Shown here: one piece after another, positions 20,126-33,759 of the stretch | Layout of the letters: every line of letters starts with the position of its first letter | Numbering within the stretch: the first letter of the stretch is position 1 | Source of the DNA: Alloascoidea hylecoeti | Taxonomy: Eukaryota | Direction: 5' to 3' | DNA length: 64,000 nucleotides | Assembly (NCBI GenBank): GCA_001600815.1 | Contig: BCKZ01000001.1 | Location: 2,018,804 to 2,082,803, forward strand | The notes under the pieces: generated by a model | Database searches by the model: none | What the model saw: the letters and a program-made list of their open reading frames with translations, nothing else | Told to the model about the DNA's origin: nothing | Position numbers and translations under genes: made by a program

Positions 20126-21538
20126 ATGTCTCGGAGATCATATACTCCAATAAACATGGCAGCATTATCAAATGAAAACCTACTTCCCATGACGGTTAAC
20201 GACCTGACCCCAGCAGAACAGCATGAACCAGATACGCTGGCTATTCCTACAGAATTACGTGCAAGCAGAAGCTCTCCTTCATTGCGATCCGGAAGCTCGC
20301 GACTATTTGACGAACCGTTTAATCGTCACCATGGACGAACAGGGAAGTTTAGAAGATTCGGACCGTTCAAAAATAGCAGAAGATGGAGAATATCAAGGTA
20401 AGCTCAACAAATCATTCAACTCTCTAATAATATTATGGGGAGAAAGTTCGTTTGATAATATATTAACCCATTATTTTTAGAATACTGAAGCCGCCGACTC
20501 TAGATTTTGAAACAGCTATTTGGGAAATATTCTACTTGGTGGTTTCACCCCGAAGAGTATACCGATCGTTATATTACCATGTAAGTAACGTGGCACATAA
20601 GTACACCATTACGAACTTTCAGCAACTAACCGAATATCCTTTCTAGAAACGTATGTCCGCCTCAATTGATGCATTTTAAACGGACTTACTAACCTTTTTA
20701 CTACAGAGACGAAAAACACCTGGGCAAGAGATGACCCATCCTTCATGATTCTTTTAACTTTTTTCCTTGTTCTATCCGCTGTGGCATGGGGTTTAGCATA
20801 TTCGCCGGGATTTATTTCAATCATCAAACTAATTTTATATATGGTTGTTGTTGATTTTCTAATAGTGGGTGTTGTGATAGCTACAATTGAATGGTTTATA
20901 GCAAACAAATTTTTCAAAACGAAAAACTCAAATGCAGGAAGAATTGGAATGAACAACACAGGTAGCTCTCGTGTAAGTGGCATGAGCGTGGGGAGTTCTG
21001 ATTCTGAATTAGAGTGGGGATACTGTTTCGATGTTCATTGTAACTCTTTCTTAATTATTTGGATATGCTTATATTTTATTCAATTTATCCTATTGCCAAT
21101 CATAACACTCGATAATTGGTATGTTAAGTTTTCTACATCTATATTCATATGGACTTTCACTAACATGTTTATAATTCATCCAACCTAGGTTTTCCAGTTT
21201 TATTGGGAATACCTTATATGCCATCGCCCTTGGATATTACTTCGTAATAACATTTTACGGTTACAATGGTACGCATGCATATTCATATGAATATTATTAT
21301 GTTTCGAAAACCAGAAATTCATGATGCTAACATTTTTTTAAATAGCCATGCCATTCCTTGAACATACTGAGCTTATTCTGTTCCCAATTCCGTTAATAGC
21401 GGTATGTATTCTTTATATTATAACAAGAAAAAATAAAATCAAATCATCGGGATTAATTGTAATTTTTTCTAGGTATTTTATTTCTTAAGCTTATTCGGAT
21501 TCAATATCTCAAAAACAATGGTTGATTATTACTTCTGA
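20126..21538 (+). CDS. GMH1: UNC-50 family Golgi membrane protein Gmh1; exons 20126-20397, 20481-20580, 20647-20650, 20707-21118, 21189-21268, 21346-21401, 21473-21538
   Basis: Spliced product contains TLDFETAIWEIFYLVVSPRRVYRSLYYH-KQ-TKNTWARDDPSF, LEWGYCFDVHCNSF and TFYGYNAMPFLEHTE. Confidence 0.92.
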
Positions 21539-22843: not shown

Positions 22844-23659
22844 TTAGCTAAAGGAGCACAATCCAATAAAAGAGGTATTCATGGATTGACAATCCGCAGG
22901 ACATGGGCCTCTAAACACAGCTTTTGGTGTTTCACTTTTACTTCGAGCATTCATTGCCTGTTGAGCACTCCTGCTATTAGGATTTGCATCCACTGGGAAT
23001 TGAACCAAAAAAAAGTCAATCCGTAGAGTTCCGTGGCTCATTAAACTCTGGATTCGATATTGTTTTCCAACCAGATCAGACTTATGATTATAATGTATTG
23101 TGCCGGAGATTTTACCACTAAATTTCGATACAGATGATCCTAGACCTTTGATATGTGTTCCTTTAACATCAACCTAATAAATAACAATTAAATGTCAGTC
23201 ACGAAAAGTTTCATCCAGAAGGAGCAATATCAATTCCAAAAATGGCATATGCAATAAAAATATATTAGGAATATGTTAGTGGGGGTGAATGAAGAGGTTG
23301 CTGATTTTTTAATATTTTTCAATCAAAATTATAATTGATGAAAAGAAGTGATGAAAAATAATGAAAAATAATAAAAACAAGGAAATGCACATGAGAAATA
23401 TAGTGCGACAAAAGTGACATTAAAAAGTAAAAGACGCTTCCGACAGGTCATTACTTCATTAAAACAAGAAATTAAATAAGGACACAGCTTTTTATTTTTA
23501 AGGAATTTTGACATTTCATTTTTATTGATATTGCTCCTCCAATTATTAAAAGATACTTACTCTGAAACTCGTCAGACCAAAAGATGAGCTGTGTATTTCC
23601 ACTGTGCACTCACTTGTGTACATATACGTGTATGAGCCTGAAGCACCTCGAGAACTCAT
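22844..23659 (-). CDS. Unannotated 142-aa orphan protein, 2 exons (23561-23659, 22844-23173); possible Vap-like beta-barrel
   Basis: ATG at 23659, a 33-codon exon, GTAAGT donor at 23560, GACTGAC branch-like motif and TTAG acceptor at 23174. Exon 2 stays open for 109 codons in frame. A TATATATAAA box lies about 170 bp upstream on the same strand. Confidence 0.75.
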
Positions 23660-26600
23660 AGATTAAAACTGGGTGAAGATTCGAAGAAGTATGGTGTACA
23701 ATGTGTTTTGTAAATAAGAAGATCGAGATGTCGGGACTAGAACGAAAAATGATGGTTGATTTTTTGTTGAGTAGAAAAGAGTTATTGGCGTTGAATATTA
23801 GTCGGGTTGAAAGAATAAGAGTGCCCTTTATATATATCGCGATCTTTACCTTTTTGAGAACGTGCTTCAAAATCAATAGCAAACAAACCAAAACCTTTTT
23901 AATTTGTTAGGGAGAAAAGGTCTTTTCTTTTAGCTATAGTGTTTAAATTGCGAAGATGCGAAGAAAATGAATTGAATTGAAAAATAGAGATTCTGCTTCT
24001 TGTTTTTGTTCGTCACTAAAATTATAGTATAGGGTGACTGTGTAATTATAACTTTTATGTGTGAAAAATACAATATAAGAATATAGTTGATGCTTGTAAT
24101 TATAACAATAGCAATATAACAATGATATTTATTATTATTATTATTATTATTATATTGATTTATTTATTTATTTGCTTATTGAAAATTCACAAAAAAATTT
24201 GAAAGCAGAAGTAAAAAGAAGGAAGAGGAGAAGGAAATATATATTTGGCCCGACATAAGAATGGAATATATACTAAAACATCAAATGATTATTATAAATG
24301 ATTGTTAGTTTTTCTATAGCAAAATTTAATTAAACTCAACGGGCATTTATCCATGCTTGTGCCTAAATACACATCTTCCAATAATTAAATAAATAATTTC
24401 TTATTATTATTCTGTGGATTATATTAATATTTGCAAATATTATAATTGGTATATGTTCTTCTTTCAGTCCGAGACAATTCAATTCTAACGTAAGATAAAA
24501 TATGATGATCAAATATTGAAATATATGAATGAATAATTAATAATGTATGTAGAAGTAGAGGGCTTCAATATTCAACCTTGAAACTGGCCACCAGTAATAA
24601 AAGCTTAAGAACAGCGTATAGCCAAAAGAATAATTATAACCTCCAGGCCTAGGCCTAGATAAGGGGCTTCCAATTATAATTCAGGCTGATTTCTTGATCA
24701 ATCATAAAAACTGGAGGTTGACTTTTTCTTCGGTATACAACCTATTGTACCATATATAATTATATAGTGTGTAAATCTTAACGGCTGAAAGGAAGAAACT
24801 CCTTATGAAGCTACGTACACAATTCATCTACCGCCCATTTCTTTTCTTTTGTAGTAGAGCCTGTTTTGGATTATTAACACAAATAACAATTGAAGAGGTT
24901 GAAATTTTTCACTGCTAATGATCAGTTTTATGAAATATATTCCTAATTGAGATTTCTGTTGAATGAACTCCAGCATAAATTATGTGTCAAACAAGCCACA
25001 GATTTCAACGCTACTGCTACGACTAAAGTACTCGACATATATGAGTATACATAGTAACAGCTCGATATCAATGTATACAAATATATCCAAGTAAAAATAC
25101 CCTGAACAAAAAGATTTCCGTGTGATAAAAGATTATATTATCGGGGAAAGTTATATTTAGTGTGAATTGTCAAGATCCTTTCACATCCAGATTTCTGGAC
25201 ATTACACCTAATGTGAAGAAGTAGTTAGCGTTATGTTTTTGGGCGAAAGATTGTCTTTTTATATTGTTTCAGTTTCAGCTTTTTACATTCGATGAACGTT
25301 CCATATGTCTTCTTTATAAGCAAAATTTATACACTCGGAAGCGTTTCTGAGGTGGTGTCGCGACCCGATCCAACGTGTTTCCATATAGGTACACATACAT
25401 ATATATGAAGATGAAGTCAAGTCCTTCACTAGTACTGTCGATCAAATTATAATTGTTTTCTCTAAAGAGATGCAATTAATTCCATTTTCGTAAGGATACG
25501 TTACTTAGCTATATAGCTATGATGACATGTATTTAACAAAGCTTAAGAAGTTGGCTAGATCTTCACACGCTAAACAAACGTGGGTCAAAAACACTGGTAA
25601 CCATTGAGATGGTTAAGCCATAGTTGTTGTGTGGTAAGATAATGTGTACATCGGTCTTCTGTCCTCCTTAAAGACTATTTGATGATCTCTAGCGGACTGC
25701 AGATGAGATATTTGCAATTTACAAATTAATAGAAGTTTCTTCACAGATTCTACCATCCTTTCTTATCTTCATTGTATAACCTTAAGGTTGTCGATGTAAT
25801 TCTCTCGGTTCTGACCCCGAATTCCGTAGCCAATCTGCGAAAAGTTGCAAGGTTTTGTTTGGTAGATATAGGTGAAATCTACTAAAATTTTCATATTCTT
25901 ATTTATAAAAGCGGAGCAAAGAAAAAATCTGATATTCCAATCAACTAGAAAATTCTTTGACCTATATTAATGGATTTCTGTCTGATTTCTCATGACCAGA
26001 GGTTTAGAACCGAAATATTTCAATAATCCTTTAAAAAGAAATGGCTAAAAGCGTTAGCTTTATATAATTATAAGTCTATAGCTGACTACACAAGCTTATA
26101 TACATTTATGTAATACCGATATATAATGCCACAACGCCATATATAATTTATATGTTTTTATCATTATTAAAAGCTGAAGAAAGTTGTGCGCTTCTTTTAT
26201 TGCTACCTGTTAATTCAGTTCCACATTTAATACATTTTCTTATTATTATTGTGCTTTTTTCATTTTGCTGCGTCATATTATCATAATAGTATTAGTCCAA
26301 TTATATCACGTTTATACTAATTTCAGGGTTTAAATTCCTTTTCAGAAATCAGAATTCATTCCTATTTTTGAATAAGTTAGATATTATCATATATATATAA
26401 TAATAATACATCACAGAAGTGTGATTACATTGTGAATTGTATAGATATATTTAAGTACGTATTCACTTTTAGATTTCATGATTTTAATTATACGGTCAAA
26501 ATGGATACACAATTACTACCAATTAGTATGGTAAAATCGTTGTTCCACACGTATGTCTCTTTGTGTCAGCCACCCGTCCATCTTTGACTATTCAATATTG

Positions 26601-28716: not shown

Positions 28717-31700
28717 CTAATCATATATTTCGACTGGTGGTACTCTATCAATGTTATAAAACCAATTTTGAGACTCCATCTCTTTAAAAAGCCAATCCAC
28801 AGGAAACATCACTAAATGTCCTTGTATTTCATGTAACAAAAGTTCTGAAGAATATTGATCGTATATCTTATTTTCAAACCCCCTGAAACGCCGTTTTCTT
28901 CTCATTGTATGCCGTTTTCTGAAATTTGCTTCGGTGTAATCTTCATTTCCTTGCAGATTGTTGCCTTGTCTCTCTTCTTCATCGTCTTCTTCTGTAGAAT
29001 TTTTTGCTGCATTCTCACTGTCTTCTTTTAGATCAGGAGGTACCCCCAAAGGTCCTCGTTCTTCTAATTGCCTGACCGAAGAAGAACTGACAACTGAGCG
29101 CGCACCGCCTGTATACTTGGTCTCTTTATCAGCCAATGTATCTTGATACTCACCAAATCCGGAGTAGAGCTTTGTAAACTCCTTGTAGTCCTTCCACACA
29201 GTCACCTGATCATCTGGCTGGCATTTGAAAACTGAGCGATATATGGCTGTATTTCGAACACCAACTTCGAACCAAACATCCTCGTAGAACTCATCATCCA
29301 ATGGATCGTTTAAACCATATGGATCAATAAAAGGTTTAGCACCTCTACCTCCAATATCATTGAAATGATCAACCATGTCTTTATAATCCAAATCATCAAG
29401 TGAAACTACCTTAACTTCATCCTCGCCAAATGTACTAACAGTGAAAGTAGTTGTTCCAACTCTTTTCAAATCTAGATTTGTTTGAGAATCTTTACCAGGG
29501 GCTTTAGGGAACTTTTTAGTTATTCGTTTATAATATGCCACTTTTTTCAATACATCAAGTTGACACTTATAATAAAATTCTTCCCCAAATATTGCTCCTT
29601 TGTCCGAATTGAGAAATTCATGAATTATATCATCATTAGCCTCTGACAAAAAATTTTCATTACAAGAATCTCCCATCATGTTTTTAGACCATTCTATTAG
29701 TAATTTTTTAATTTTTGCTTGATACTCTTTTTTCTCCTTCATATGGTCAAGACCATTACCATCCACATCAGACTTGTGTTTTTCATTTCCTTGGACTCTT
29801 GAATCATTACTAATAGGTTTCTTTTCTCTTAAGCCTTTGTTTTCATCTCCTGCTCTTGTATTAAATGAATGAACCAATCTTTTCAGATATACATTTCTTT
29901 GTGATGATAGTTTATGTTCATATCTAGTTTCAGTTGGAACAGTTTCACTAATATCAAGGTCGTTATTTTGCAATTGTGCGGTGGTTAACTCATCTAAAAT
30001 ATGTTTAGATATCGATTTAATAACAGAAGAGGAATATTCTACTCTCCCATTGTTAACTTTCAAGCTGGAAATGAATTCATTAAATTGTATTTCGACTATA
30101 TCTAATTCATCAACATCAATTCCAAGATGTTCTCTCATCAATCGTAATCTTAAGGAGTGTGCAAATTTTGCTGCTTTATATGGTTTGCCATTCATGACAC
30201 TGTCTATTAGACAATGATCCCTGATAATTGCACAAATTTCAGAATCTCTACTACCTCTCATTGATCTCTCATTAATATTTGCAGAACCAATAATCACCGT
30301 TCTATCATCAGCAATAAGACATTTACTATGAATGTATAATTGTTCAGTTATCAATTTTTGTTTGGGTCCAATTTTACCCCATTTTCTTAAGGAGAAAAAT
30401 TGGATATATTCTTCTGCTTGAATGCCTAGTTGTTTTAATTTTCCGAAAATACTATTATTCCCTCTACTAATTGACATATACTGACATTGCATAATAACAC
30501 GAATACTCGAACCTTCAATGACATCAACTTCCTTTTCAAACCCAGGAAATAATGGTATAACAATAATTGCTTTCCATTTTTCTTTGCTTGCGTGGGCTCT
30601 AACAATTCGTTCAACCAATGCATCACCAATTCTATTTTTAATAATAGTTCCATCAACAGCTGTTGAAGTTATAAAAAATTGGTTTTCAATATAAACATAA
30701 TGTTCTGATGTTTCGATTACTTTTAAATAAGCATTTTGAATACTTTGTTCATATTTAATTAAGCCTGTTGACCATGAATTAGCGGACCTTAATAATTGCA
30801 TCTCACAAGTACCAGATAGTCCTGAATCTTCAGCATCTTCTTCTGTGATTTCAGATGGTGGGACTAAAAAGGGTGTTAGTCGTGAGGGCCTTTTCTGTCT
30901 TAATAGATAATTCCACCTCTGAACAAAATGTCGTTCTAAATCTCTTGCTATACTTCCAGAACTCATGAGGTGAATGTCATGCCAGGGCATTCTTGCTATA
31001 TTTTGCCTATCATACATATCTTCAAATGGTTTGTCAAGAGCAGAGAAATCTTTTATTCTTGGATTTGAATAATCTTTTCCTGGCCAAATTTGTGTTTTAT
31101 TAGCAGGAGGATATTTTGAATCATCAATATTAATTGGTATATCATTACTACTACGACTACTGATAATATTATTGGGATTTGAAGTAATAATTGTTGCAGA
31201 GCTTGAATTTGGATTATTAGTGAAAGGAACAGGTGAATCATCCACAAGAACATGATCAGGAGTATCAAAACGACCATAACAAAGATCAATACCACCGAGA
31301 AAGCATATTTTATGATCAATTAATACTAATTTTTCATGATGAGCCCAAAAAAAAGTATTTTGTAATAATTGATTTGGTGATCTCATTACAAATATGTTTG
31401 GATGAAGATCAAGTAATGAATATTTTGAATATTGTGAATCAATTGGTACAAAATTACCATAATTTCGATACATTACAATGAATATTTTTAACCCTTCTTC
31501 AGCTTTTCTTTTTAGTAATCTATCAAGTCTCCATTGTTCATTGCCTTCTGGTGGTCTTCTTAAATATAATTCAGGACTAATCCACCATCCATGAATATAT
31601 ATTATTTCTTTTGCCCTATCAATGGCAGCGCTAACTGCCCAATAATAATCTTTTGCGTCAACAAACCATTGAGCAAAAACATTAGATCGTATTGGAGCAA

Positions 31701-33759
31701 AACTACCAAATCGATTTGGTTTACTCCATATAGTTTTCATTGACATTGATCTAATTGCTTTAACCCATTCGGATACATCATACTCTGATTTACCAACAAT
31801 TTTCATACTTCTTTCTTTATTTTCAATCTCAAAATTTAAATGAACTTTTGGATGAGATGTTTCAAGCTTTTTTGGATTTTTGTTATGAGGATAAGTAATA
31901 TGAAATTCCGAATCAACAAGGAAAACATCTAATGGTGTTGTTGAATGAATATCCTTAACATATAATATATAAGAATCTCTTAAAATGAACCATTTCAAAG
32001 TATGTCTCTTAATCATGTCTTGAATATCAATTGGTTTTAAATGTGATACTTTCCAACCTTGTGTTTTTGATGACGAACCAATTAATAGATAACCTTCTTT
32101 TAATTTCATATTTTTTTCATCAAATAATAATAAACTCATACTTGAAATTTCTAAAAATTGTAATAAACGATTTGCAAATGGTCTTATCATTAATGCTCTC
32201 GAGACTTGTTGTAAATAATCTTCTATTGATTTTCTTAAAATTTCAATCTTGTCACTGTCTGTATCTTTCTTTTTATAGTACCCTGTTACTCTACTGAAAA
32301 GCTTTGGTTTGTAATAGTGACTAGCATTGTGATTTTGATTTTGATTTTGATTTTGATTTTGATTTTGATTTTGATTTTGATTTTGATTTTGATTTTGACT
32401 TTGATTTTGATTTTGATTTTGATTNNNNNNNNNNNNNNNNNNNNNNNNNNNNNNNNNNNNNNNNNNNNNNNNNNNNNNNNNNNNNNNNNTTTGATTTTGA
32501 TTTTGATTTTGATTTTGATTTTGACTTTGATCATCATTATTAATATTATTGTTATAATTTGAAGCTTCTATAAAACTGCTTACATTTTTATGTTTATGTG
32601 AAGTTTGATCATTGTTAGTATCTCTAGGAGATAAGCGATGTGTAGGATGAGATTGTGATGTCACAAAGGAACCTTCGGGGAATATAGAGCCATCATCAAC
32701 AGATGCATATGGTGTTGGTGAATCCATATATGGTGCCTGTAAAACTTGTAATCGTGGTCTTTCTGAAGTCGTCTCTGGAGAATTTGAAAGTTCATAAATT
32801 TTTGGATTATTGTTATTTTCATTTCCTTCTGAATGTAATCTTGGAAATTTTGGTAATTTTAATTCACCAGTTGATCCATTACCACCTTTTCTTAACTTAT
32901 TTGCTTGAAAAATAGCAACCTTCAACTTTGTATGAAAATTCAATAAATCATTATAACTTTTTAAAACGTACCATTTTACACAATAATCACCAGAACCATA
33001 TTCCAATTCAATTTTATATGTTGGATTACGATCATTTAGTGTATAAATATCAATAACATCAAATTTTAATTGTTGTAGTAATATTGGAGCACGCCGTATA
33101 TTATGTTCATCCCTTTGAAAAGCAGAAGCTAAAATTAAAGCAGCTGGAGTACCTATTGATAATTCAGATATTAATTCAGATGATTTCTTTTCATCTTTTA
33201 AAATTTTGGTTGTTTTTTTCTTTCTTTTGATTTTTAAGCCATGTTTCAGATCCCGAAACTTGTTAAAATGGGGACTTTCCGGGGTATTAAACATTGAAAG
33301 TCTCCGTCTCCAACTAGGTTGATCATCTATCGTTGATTTTTTACTAGACTCCGGTTTTTTATCTGAAGCTATAGTACTAGAAGTTGGTGGTTCCAATGCT
33401 TTACCATCATCGTTATTATGTCCTTGATTGCTAATGTCCTTTGACTTTAATGATCGATTCCGAAACAATTCCGACCATCTTTTTGCAGATGTCCCATCTA
33501 TAGAGTAATGTTTGGAAATTTTAGCCGAAATATTTGGTTCATATTTATTAAGGCTTCCATTTAAATCATTTGTCTTTAATAACGAGTCAATATCGAAGGT
33601 GTTAATGTCTCTATTAACGGCCGGAGGTGATGAATGTAGCGACAACTTCGCACTGAGATTACTTTTATCCTTGCTTTTTGATAAAAGATCATTTTCATGT
33701 GATGAACTCAGAGATGCAACCGGTTGGCCGTTTTGGTCCGAAAAGGCCGGTGGGTTCAT
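28717..33759 (-). CDS. SPO14: Phospholipase D1 (PX, PH and two HKD domains); spans an assembly gap
   Basis: 1680-aa ORF with HHEKLVLID, HSKCLIADD, WWISPELYLRRP, RMPWHD and YIENQFF. Confidence 0.95.
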   Translation of the reverse strand: MNPPAFSDQNGQPVASLSSSHENDLLSKSKDKSNLSAKLSLHSSPPAVNRDINTFDIDSLLKTNDLNGSLNKYEPNISAKISKHYSIDGTSAKRWSELFRNRSLKSKDISNQGHNNDDGKALEPPTSSTIASDKKPESSKKSTIDDQPSWRRRLSMFNTPESPHFNKFRDLKHGLKIKRKKKTTKILKDEKKSSELISELSIGTPAALILASAFQRDEHNIRRAPILLQQLKFDVIDIYTLNDRNPTYKIELEYGSGDYCVKWYVLKSYNDLLNFHTKLKVAIFQANKLRKGGNGSTGELKLPKFPRLHSEGNENNNNPKIYELSNSPETTSERPRLQVLQAPYMDSPTPYASVDDGSIFPEGSFVTSQSHPTHRLSPRDTNNDQTSHKHKNVSSFIEASNYNNNINNDDQSQNQNQNQNQNQXXXXXXXXXXXXXXXXXXXXXXNQNQNQNQSQNQNQNQNQNQNQNQNQNQNQNHNASHYYKPKLFSRVTGYYKKKDTDSDKIEILRKSIEDYLQQVSRALMIRPFANRLLQFLEISSMSLLLFDEKNMKLKEGYLLIGSSSKTQGWKVSHLKPIDIQDMIKRHTLKWFILRDSYILYVKDIHSTTPLDVFLVDSEFHITYPHNKNPKKLETSHPKVHLNFEIENKERSMKIVGKSEYDVSEWVKAIRSMSMKTIWSKPNRFGSFAPIRSNVFAQWFVDAKDYYWAVSAAIDRAKEIIYIHGWWISPELYLRRPPEGNEQWRLDRLLKRKAEEGLKIFIVMYRNYGNFVPIDSQYSKYSLLDLHPNIFVMRSPNQLLQNTFFWAHHEKLVLIDHKICFLGGIDLCYGRFDTPDHVLVDDSPVPFTNNPNSSSATIITSNPNNIISSRSSNDIPINIDDSKYPPANKTQIWPGKDYSNPRIKDFSALDKPFEDMYDRQNIARMPWHDIHLMSSGSIARDLERHFVQRWNYLLRQKRPSRLTPFLVPPSEITEEDAEDSGLSGTCEMQLLRSANSWSTGLIKYEQSIQNAYLKVIETSEHYVYIENQFFITSTAVDGTIIKNRIGDALVERIVRAHASKEKWKAIIVIPLFPGFEKEVDVIEGSSIRVIMQCQYMSISRGNNSIFGKLKQLGIQAEEYIQFFSLRKWGKIGPKQKLITEQLYIHSKCLIADDRTVIIGSANINERSMRGSRDSEICAIIRDHCLIDSVMNGKPYKAAKFAHSLRLRLMREHLGIDVDELDIVEIQFNEFISSLKVNNGRVEYSSSVIKSISKHILDELTTAQLQNNDLDISETVPTETRYEHKLSSQRNVYLKRLVHSFNTRAGDENKGLREKKPISNDSRVQGNEKHKSDVDGNGLDHMKEKKEYQAKIKKLLIEWSKNMMGDSCNENFLSEANDDIIHEFLNSDKGAIFGEEFYYKCQLDVLKKVAYYKRITKKFPKAPGKDSQTNLDLKRVGTTTFTVSTFGEDEVKVVSLDDLDYKDMVDHFNDIGGRGAKPFIDPYGLNDPLDDEFYEDVWFEVGVRNTAIYRSVFKCQPDDQVTVWKDYKEFTKLYSGFGEYQDTLADKETKYTGGARSVVSSSSVRQLEERGPLGVPPDLKEDSENAAKNSTEEDDEEERQGNNLQGNEDYTEANFRKRHTMRRKRRFRGFENKIYDQYSSELLLHEIQGHLVMFPVDWLFKEMESQNWFYNIDRVPPVEIYD
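32330..32526 (-). repeat. (AATCAA)n hexamer microsatellite encoding (NQ)n within SPO14; contains an N-gap
   Basis: Direct (gatttt)n run on the plus strand on both sides of the Ns at about 32425-32488. Confidence 0.95.

Follow-up and report, generated by a model that had tools for sequence, protein, structure and literature searches.

What does the short gene at positions 22844 to 23659 of a 64,000-nucleotide stretch of Alloascoidea hylecoeti DNA (the window) encode, and does its product belong with the Vap virulence proteins of Rhodococcus equi, as a first-pass annotation had proposed? The locus is best explained as a working two-exon gene for a soluble protein of 142 amino acids (aa), from an old budding-yeast family lacking a name. 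It is judged a real spliced gene from a conserved nameless family, with a well-supported predicted Vap fold that lacks the Vap sequence hallmarks.

A spliced gene and its yeast family

The gene is read from the reverse strand and has the following parts.

23827..23836, minus strand: putative TATA-like box TATATATAAA, 177 nucleotides (nt) before the ATG
23561..23659, minus strand: exon 1 of 33 codons; in the predicted barrel, strand 1 and the first half of strand 2, after a short leader
23174..23560, minus strand: GT-AG intron, 387 nt, phase 0, 13 in-frame stops
23275..23281, minus strand: distal candidate branch point CACTAAC, about 106 nt before the acceptor
23194..23200, minus strand: proximal candidate branch point GACTGAC, about 25 nt before the acceptor
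22844..23173, minus strand: exon 2, 109 codons and stop; in the predicted barrel, the remainder of strand 2, then strands 3-4, the helix, strands 5-6, a variable loop and strands 7-8

The coordinates, the GTAAGT donor, the phase and the stops agree on the single intron that had been proposed, and the exon translations are the two parts of the 142-aa product noted earlier. The intron ends in TTTATTAG and has a GC content of 0.27, against 0.44 and 0.39 in the exons. Because its length is a multiple of 3, exons 1 and 2 lie in the same genomic frame with stops between them, and not in two frames as first described. Its last 128 nt hold no other AG before the acceptor, and the canonical TACTAAC was not found within it. 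Both CTG codons of the gene align with leucine columns of the family, so the standard code fits. Three RNA runs of the same study, set against the locus, showed no joint and matched only within the intron, in two short pieces of low identity, which is neutral evidence; we infer splicing from the gene model and from the comparisons below.

The TATA box and the gene-free upstream DNA, also part of the first description, both stand. Between the ATG and the next upstream gene lie 5,057 nt with no ATG open reading frame (ORF) of at least 100 aa, no tRNA and no Rfam match. A small nucleolar RNA (snoRNA) or other RNA within the intron or this gap was considered, and an Rfam scan found none.

The gene had been called an orphan, which it is not. 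A paralog lies on C18 of the same genome, with an intron of 95 nt (GTAAGT...TACTAAC...TAG) at the same position and in the same phase, an exon 1 that stops at the same codon, and a TATA-like TATATAAA 141 nt before its ATG. The first exons of the two copies are identical at 15 of 35 positions. An exon-by-exon comparison of 142 codons gives identities of 0.56, 0.65 and 0.37 at the first, second and third codon positions; where the residue is the same (69 sites), the codon is also the same at only 29. The two introns are unalike (139 of 200 shuffles score as high), which together with the codon-position pattern indicates that the protein is under constraint. A third match in the genome, on C3 (E 0.26), covered only the paralog's low-complexity loop and was dropped.

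Beyond this genome, a profile of both second exons had 8 matches among 1.84 billion proteins; 6 are family members, and P0010 and P0011 were dropped as repeat-rich chance matches. A wider family profile found 28 proteins. The named members come from Candida albicans (CAALFM_CR00160CA), C. tropicalis, C. maltosa, C. viswanathii, [Candida] jaroonii, Debaryomyces hansenii (DEHA2E18260p), Hyphopichia burtonii, Scheffersomyces spartinae, four Wickerhamomyces species and two Cyberlindnera species, and all are annotated as hypothetical or uncharacterised. No Saccharomyces, Yarrowia or filamentous fungus was among the named matches, in searches that were not exhaustive and in which many matches are nameless. 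One record, P0072 (153 aa), is labelled 'Asgard group archaeon' and falls inside the 90% cluster of C. tropicalis; it is probably yeast contamination of a metagenome-assembled genome.

Both exons match the CAALFM_CR00160CA family profile colinearly. When the profile was built from 27 homologues without the window proteins (156 positions), exon 1 fell on positions 5-27 with 17.8 bits and exon 2 on positions 30-151 with 69.8 bits. In 6/6 metagenome loci the family protein is one ORF. The colinear match and the single-ORF relatives give independent support for the junction of the two exons. In a midpoint-rooted tree of the exon-2 part, the Candida/Debaryomyces group (99/93) stands apart from the Wickerhamomyces group (93/83), and the window gene and its paralog sit together on a long branch. 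This sequence tree fits old vertical inheritance, with long branches that make placement unsure.

A single-sequence word search with exon 2 had no match, and NCBIfam had no meaningful family for 34 family rows. Pattern scans, which detect close relatives only, found none in bacterial and archaeal genomes (166 candidates) or viral contigs (29 candidates), nor, with the two-paralog alignment, in metagenomes (288 candidates).

Predicted fold and descent

The C. albicans member and the window's exon 2 alone were modelled. Both models are closed eight-stranded barrels with a helix between strands 4 and 5, and for both the best structural match is the Vap fold, which in the Vaps has the strand order 1-2-3-8-5-6-7-4. 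The structures compared were VapB (PDB 4cv7, 7b1z), VapD (4csb) and VapG (5aeo), of Pfam family PF05526 (R_equi_Vir). Alignments to the Vaps have a root-mean-square deviation (rmsd) of 2.0-2.5 A over 104-106 residues, and a gap in Z score of more than 6 separates them from the next fold. In the predicted structure, the helix and the terminal aromatic stand at the same places as in the Vaps. From the models it is very probable that the protein folds as a closed eight-stranded barrel and that, among solved structures, only the R. equi Vaps are close relatives. The core of four strands, helix and four strands that had been read from the letters is seen in the predicted structure, as is the loop insertion before strand 7, here a long loop. 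Two of the residue registers proposed by eye coincide with end points of the structural alignments: the start of exon 2 falls on VapG Leu60, and the terminal Phe on the Vap Trp.

Several results weigh against kinship with the Vaps. The window model spans exon 2, 109 of the 142 aa, and identity in the structural alignments is 10-16%. PF05526, which has a Pfam cut-off of 25 bits and was searched to E 10, matches 0/34 family rows and neither window exon alone, and gives 110-138 bits on three bacterial controls. When family and Vap profiles were compared, hhalign returned probabilities of 0.4% and 0.2%, and column-shuffled Vap profiles scored as high in 73/100 cases (local) and 28/100 (global), with both profiles shallow (Neff 2.3-3.2) and sensitivity limited in consequence. 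The link to PF05526 drawn from the letters was thus not recovered. With the family profile, the best of 135 Vaps scored 5.5 bits and the best reversed sequence 3.4; the means of -0.1 (131 Vaps scored) and -1.1 (135 reversed sequences scored) show at most a faint trend among related sequences, which proves nothing.

The hallmarks of the Vap sequence are also missing. The terminal aromatic is Phe in 32/32 family rows and in both copies here, and Trp in 135/135 Vap rows. The nine residues before it contain one Gly in 30/31 yeast rows and two in the remaining row; Vap rows have 4-6, and 5-6 in 134/135. If strand 8 aligns without gaps, the one glycine that yeasts keep corresponds to a structural kink, and the invariant Ile137 takes the place of the 'bald spot' glycine. 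The loss of glycine and the Ile at the 'bald spot' suggest that the lipid-binding surface proposed for the Vaps has not been kept.

A scan of the genome with PF05526 had 0 matches, as did its controls, and is uninformative. PDB sequence searches found no match. The ESM Atlas had no usable match for exon 2 and no Vap match for the W. mucosus member (feature scores 0.80-0.82; predicted local distance difference test, pLDDT, of the Atlas model 0.31).

The absence of a signal peptide, as first noted, is in line with N-terminal hydropathy, a proxy and not a signal-peptide predictor. The best 10-residue value is 0.58 for the window protein and -0.04 to 1.37 in 8 yeast sequences, against 2.07-2.94 for VapA, VapC and VapD; by this proxy the yeast sequences lack the secretion signal of the R. 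equi Vaps proper. Vaps outside R. equi are also without a signal peptide (PMC4118825).

Because the topology is rare, the shared predicted fold likely reflects remote common descent with the Vaps. Yeast and Vap sequences do not align, so estimates of descent and transfer rest on the fold and not on a tree. Vaps occur widely among bacteria, and the eukaryotic members that carry a species name all come from budding yeasts. This makes it plausible, at a little below an even chance, that an early budding yeast acquired a bacterial Vap without a signal peptide. If transfer occurred, chromosomal signal-less bacterial Vaps are the likeliest kind of donor. A Vap search gave 515 proteins; among the 120 matches listed, all carry PF05526, the named ones are bacterial and none is a yeast protein. 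The Vap match at each of the two Herpetosiphonaceae loci is 750-840 nt long, roughly the length of two genes, which suggests tandem Vap-like genes outside R. equi.

One viral protein also matched the yeast model. BFVD Q677V4 (121 aa), from lymphocystis disease virus-China, did so with E 4.4e-4 and template-modelling (TM) scores of 0.53/0.62, and is possibly a viral Vap-fold protein. With the same predicted fold in an iridovirus, its model shows that the fold has other, unmapped branches. We found no paper linking the lymphocystis virus protein with VapA.

Function and competing explanations

A housekeeping-type yeast protein, rather than a virulence factor, is the best explanation of the family. 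The protein would stay in the cytosol as a soluble barrel without a signal-like N-terminus, with an invariant Phe in the core where the Vaps have their Trp. It would bind lipid surfaces peripherally and without catalysis, via the short-turn apolar end of the barrel and in a setting of lipid metabolism; the surfaces may be anionic-lipid membranes (phosphatidic acid, for example) or lipid stores. This binding is the weakest step. Lipid surfaces are the target we favour, tentatively, and the whole chain from fold through descent to a cytosolic, non-catalytic lipid-surface binder likewise falls somewhat short of an even prospect.

Four observations led to the lipid reading: an effect of phosphatidic acid, which stimulates binding of VapA and VapB to liposomes (PMC10100859); adjacency to a phospholipase D (PLD) gene; a POT1 neighbour in other yeasts; and co-induction with beta-oxidation genes. 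The PLD gene is the upstream neighbour.

28717..33759, minus strand: PLD of the SPO14/PLD1 type, with Pfam PLDc and PH; duplicated together with the gene

The paralog, too, is preceded on its own strand by a PLD gene, which ends 3.1 kb away and is 51% identical to the first. The genome has two full-length PLD paralogs of this type (window 28717-33759 and C18:53085-58472), each with a Vap-fold gene just downstream on the same strand. PLD and gene are all that C18:32000-81999 has in common with the window, and a bigger duplicated block was rejected on this comparison of 50 kb of C18. A shorter third PLD-like gene lies on C15, near 360400-362250. Downstream of the paralog are two adjacent large ORFs (C18:66644-71143), of which the one scanned is a ferric reductase, and a pair of frames of 603 codons each (C18:74133-79975), which lie about 4 kb apart and begin almost identically.

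In 5/6 other yeast loci the gene immediately downstream of the family gene, on the same strand, is the thiolase gene POT1. Linkage to POT1 in A. hylecoeti was rejected, as its best POT1 match is on C10 and the C18 block shares only PLD and the gene. POT1 of C. albicans is orf19.7520 (CR_00150C), and by numbering and order CR_00160C is probably orf19.7519. The latter belongs to a set of 80 genes that rise together with beta-oxidation genes when C. albicans is phagocytosed, with a nominal P of 0.008 (PMC6453965), and, if so identified, changes about twofold in spaceflight data; the two changes indicate that the family is expressed in C. albicans. The gene's identifier was not found in the supplements of PMC6212825 on essentiality, with the main tables perhaps outside them.

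Other window neighbours, named from their Pfam families, include U3 snoRNP10, UNC-50, ChAPs, TFIID-31kDa and CDC24. The UNC-50/GMH1-like ORF (window 20670-21188 and onward) covers profile positions 52-168 of 221, and its gene probably has further exons.

A link to lipids has its own counterarguments. A PLD gene lies within 5 kb in 0/6 other family loci, the adjacency here counts as a single duplicated event, and eukaryotic neighbours often share no function. Co-induction with POT1 may simply reflect adjacency. Each of the 32 family members has a net negative charge (-7 to -19), which disfavours anionic membranes; the window protein, at +7, is the exception. No member of the 32 has a peroxisomal targeting signal pattern of type PTS1 or PTS2, and peroxisomal targeting was rejected on that ground.

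The conserved polar residues might instead form the surface for a protein partner. Glu30, His32, Lys44, Asn71, Lys80, Lys82, Arg94, Asp96 and Glu143 are kept in 29-32 of 32 members, and would face outward judging only from strand alternation. The barrel would then be an adaptor, chaperone or inhibitor with no lipid role, to which the loss of the glycine-rich surface and the net acidity are suited; an enzyme-inhibitor role has also been proposed for Vaps (PMC4118825). However, the present data suggest no partner, and the context clues from PLD, POT1 and beta-oxidation, weak as they are, point to lipids. We regard a protein-binding role as rather doubtful.

Convergence on the same fold, with no ancestry in common with the Vaps, would be compatible with either a lipid or an adaptor function. 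It is improbable given the rare crossover topology, the closeness of the structural alignments over more than 100 residues, the shared places of helix and terminal aromatic, and the distance in Z score to the next fold.

Strand 1 carries a Cys-x-x-Glu-x-His-Cys pattern (Cys27 29/32, Glu30 32/32, His32 29/32, Cys33 30/32) that a small metal-binding or redox protein could use, and the window protein retains its first Cys, Glu and His. Yet the second Cys is Ser in the window protein and Gly in the paralog, the P0007 group has neither of the two Cys nor the His, and the available parts of the Vap literature mention no enzymatic activity, all of which leaves such a protein quite improbable.

A membrane-permeabilising effector like VapA, acting on vacuoles, host phagosomes or competing microbes, would draw on fold identity with VapA's family and on the early rise of the presumed orf19.7519 in phagocytosed C. 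albicans. We consider it very improbable: 8/8 yeast sequences checked have no signal-peptide-like N-terminus, food and environmental yeasts retain the family, and the Vap hallmarks are lost. The activity of the VapA type, which is to bind and permeabilise membranes and raise phagosome pH, differs even among Vaps: phagosomes are not neutralised by VapB, a very close relative of VapA (PMC10100859). Least probable is that the window copy is a decaying, unexpressed duplicate, as its long branch, several changed family-invariant residues and non-canonical branch point might suggest, since both exons are open, splice signals and TATA are kept in both paralogs, and third codon positions are far more diverged than first and second.

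A cytosolic binder of lipid surfaces is the function we prefer. A bolder version, in which a bacterial gene taken up by an early budding yeast became a conserved intracellular sensor or remodeller of phosphatidic-acid-rich membranes, downstream of PLD and alongside fatty-acid breakdown, is unlikely. If true, no Vap-fold protein of eukaryotic cells would have been known before it, and the barrel's effect on membranes could be studied in a harmless and genetically tractable model, with the C. albicans member switched on inside macrophages.

The Vap barrel has been described as a unique topology confined to bacteria, and a yeast family with this fold would extend its range to eukaryotes. We found no report of a fungal Vap-fold protein in literature judged largely from titles, with subscription papers mostly outside the scope; automated domain catalogues based on AlphaFold may already list the assignment. 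Fold does not equal function. The predicted fold gives a first structural starting point for a gene that is uncharacterised in C. albicans and in many industrial yeasts. The action of VapA on membranes is still unsettled in the available parts of the literature, and yeast genetics could address what a barrel without the glycine-rich surface does. The fold superfamily may be wider than recognised, as the iridovirus match suggests.

Comparison with known systems

The R. equi Vaps share the predicted fold and differ in most else. The yeast family has no PF05526 match and no signal peptide, Phe in place of the terminal Trp, one Gly before it where Vaps have 5-6, and a long, variable, low-confidence loop between strands 6 and 7. 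The yeast gene is nuclear, with an intron here, and the R. equi genes lie in a plasmid island. The same fold family includes the chromosomal 'VapA/VapB family' proteins of other bacteria, among them Xenorhabdus, Halomonas, Flavobacterium, Nostoc and Labrys, mostly 144-155 aa long; they are described as single-copy, without a signal peptide and uncharacterised in function (PMC4118825, PMC4518536). Unlike the yeast family, they retain the glycine-rich strand and the Trp and score on PF05526. PDB 5uc0, a Brucella COG5400 protein, and the predicted structure of UniProt Q677V4 are weaker matches than the Vaps, both uncharacterised by title.

The CAALFM_CR00160CA/DEHA2E18260p family is acidic, is without an intron in 6/6 other loci seen and lies before POT1, whereas the window protein is basic and its gene, like the paralog, has an intron and sits behind PLD. 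The LRIDF and FIG-x-x-x-F motifs are common to both, and the window protein is a true sequence homologue of this family over both exons.
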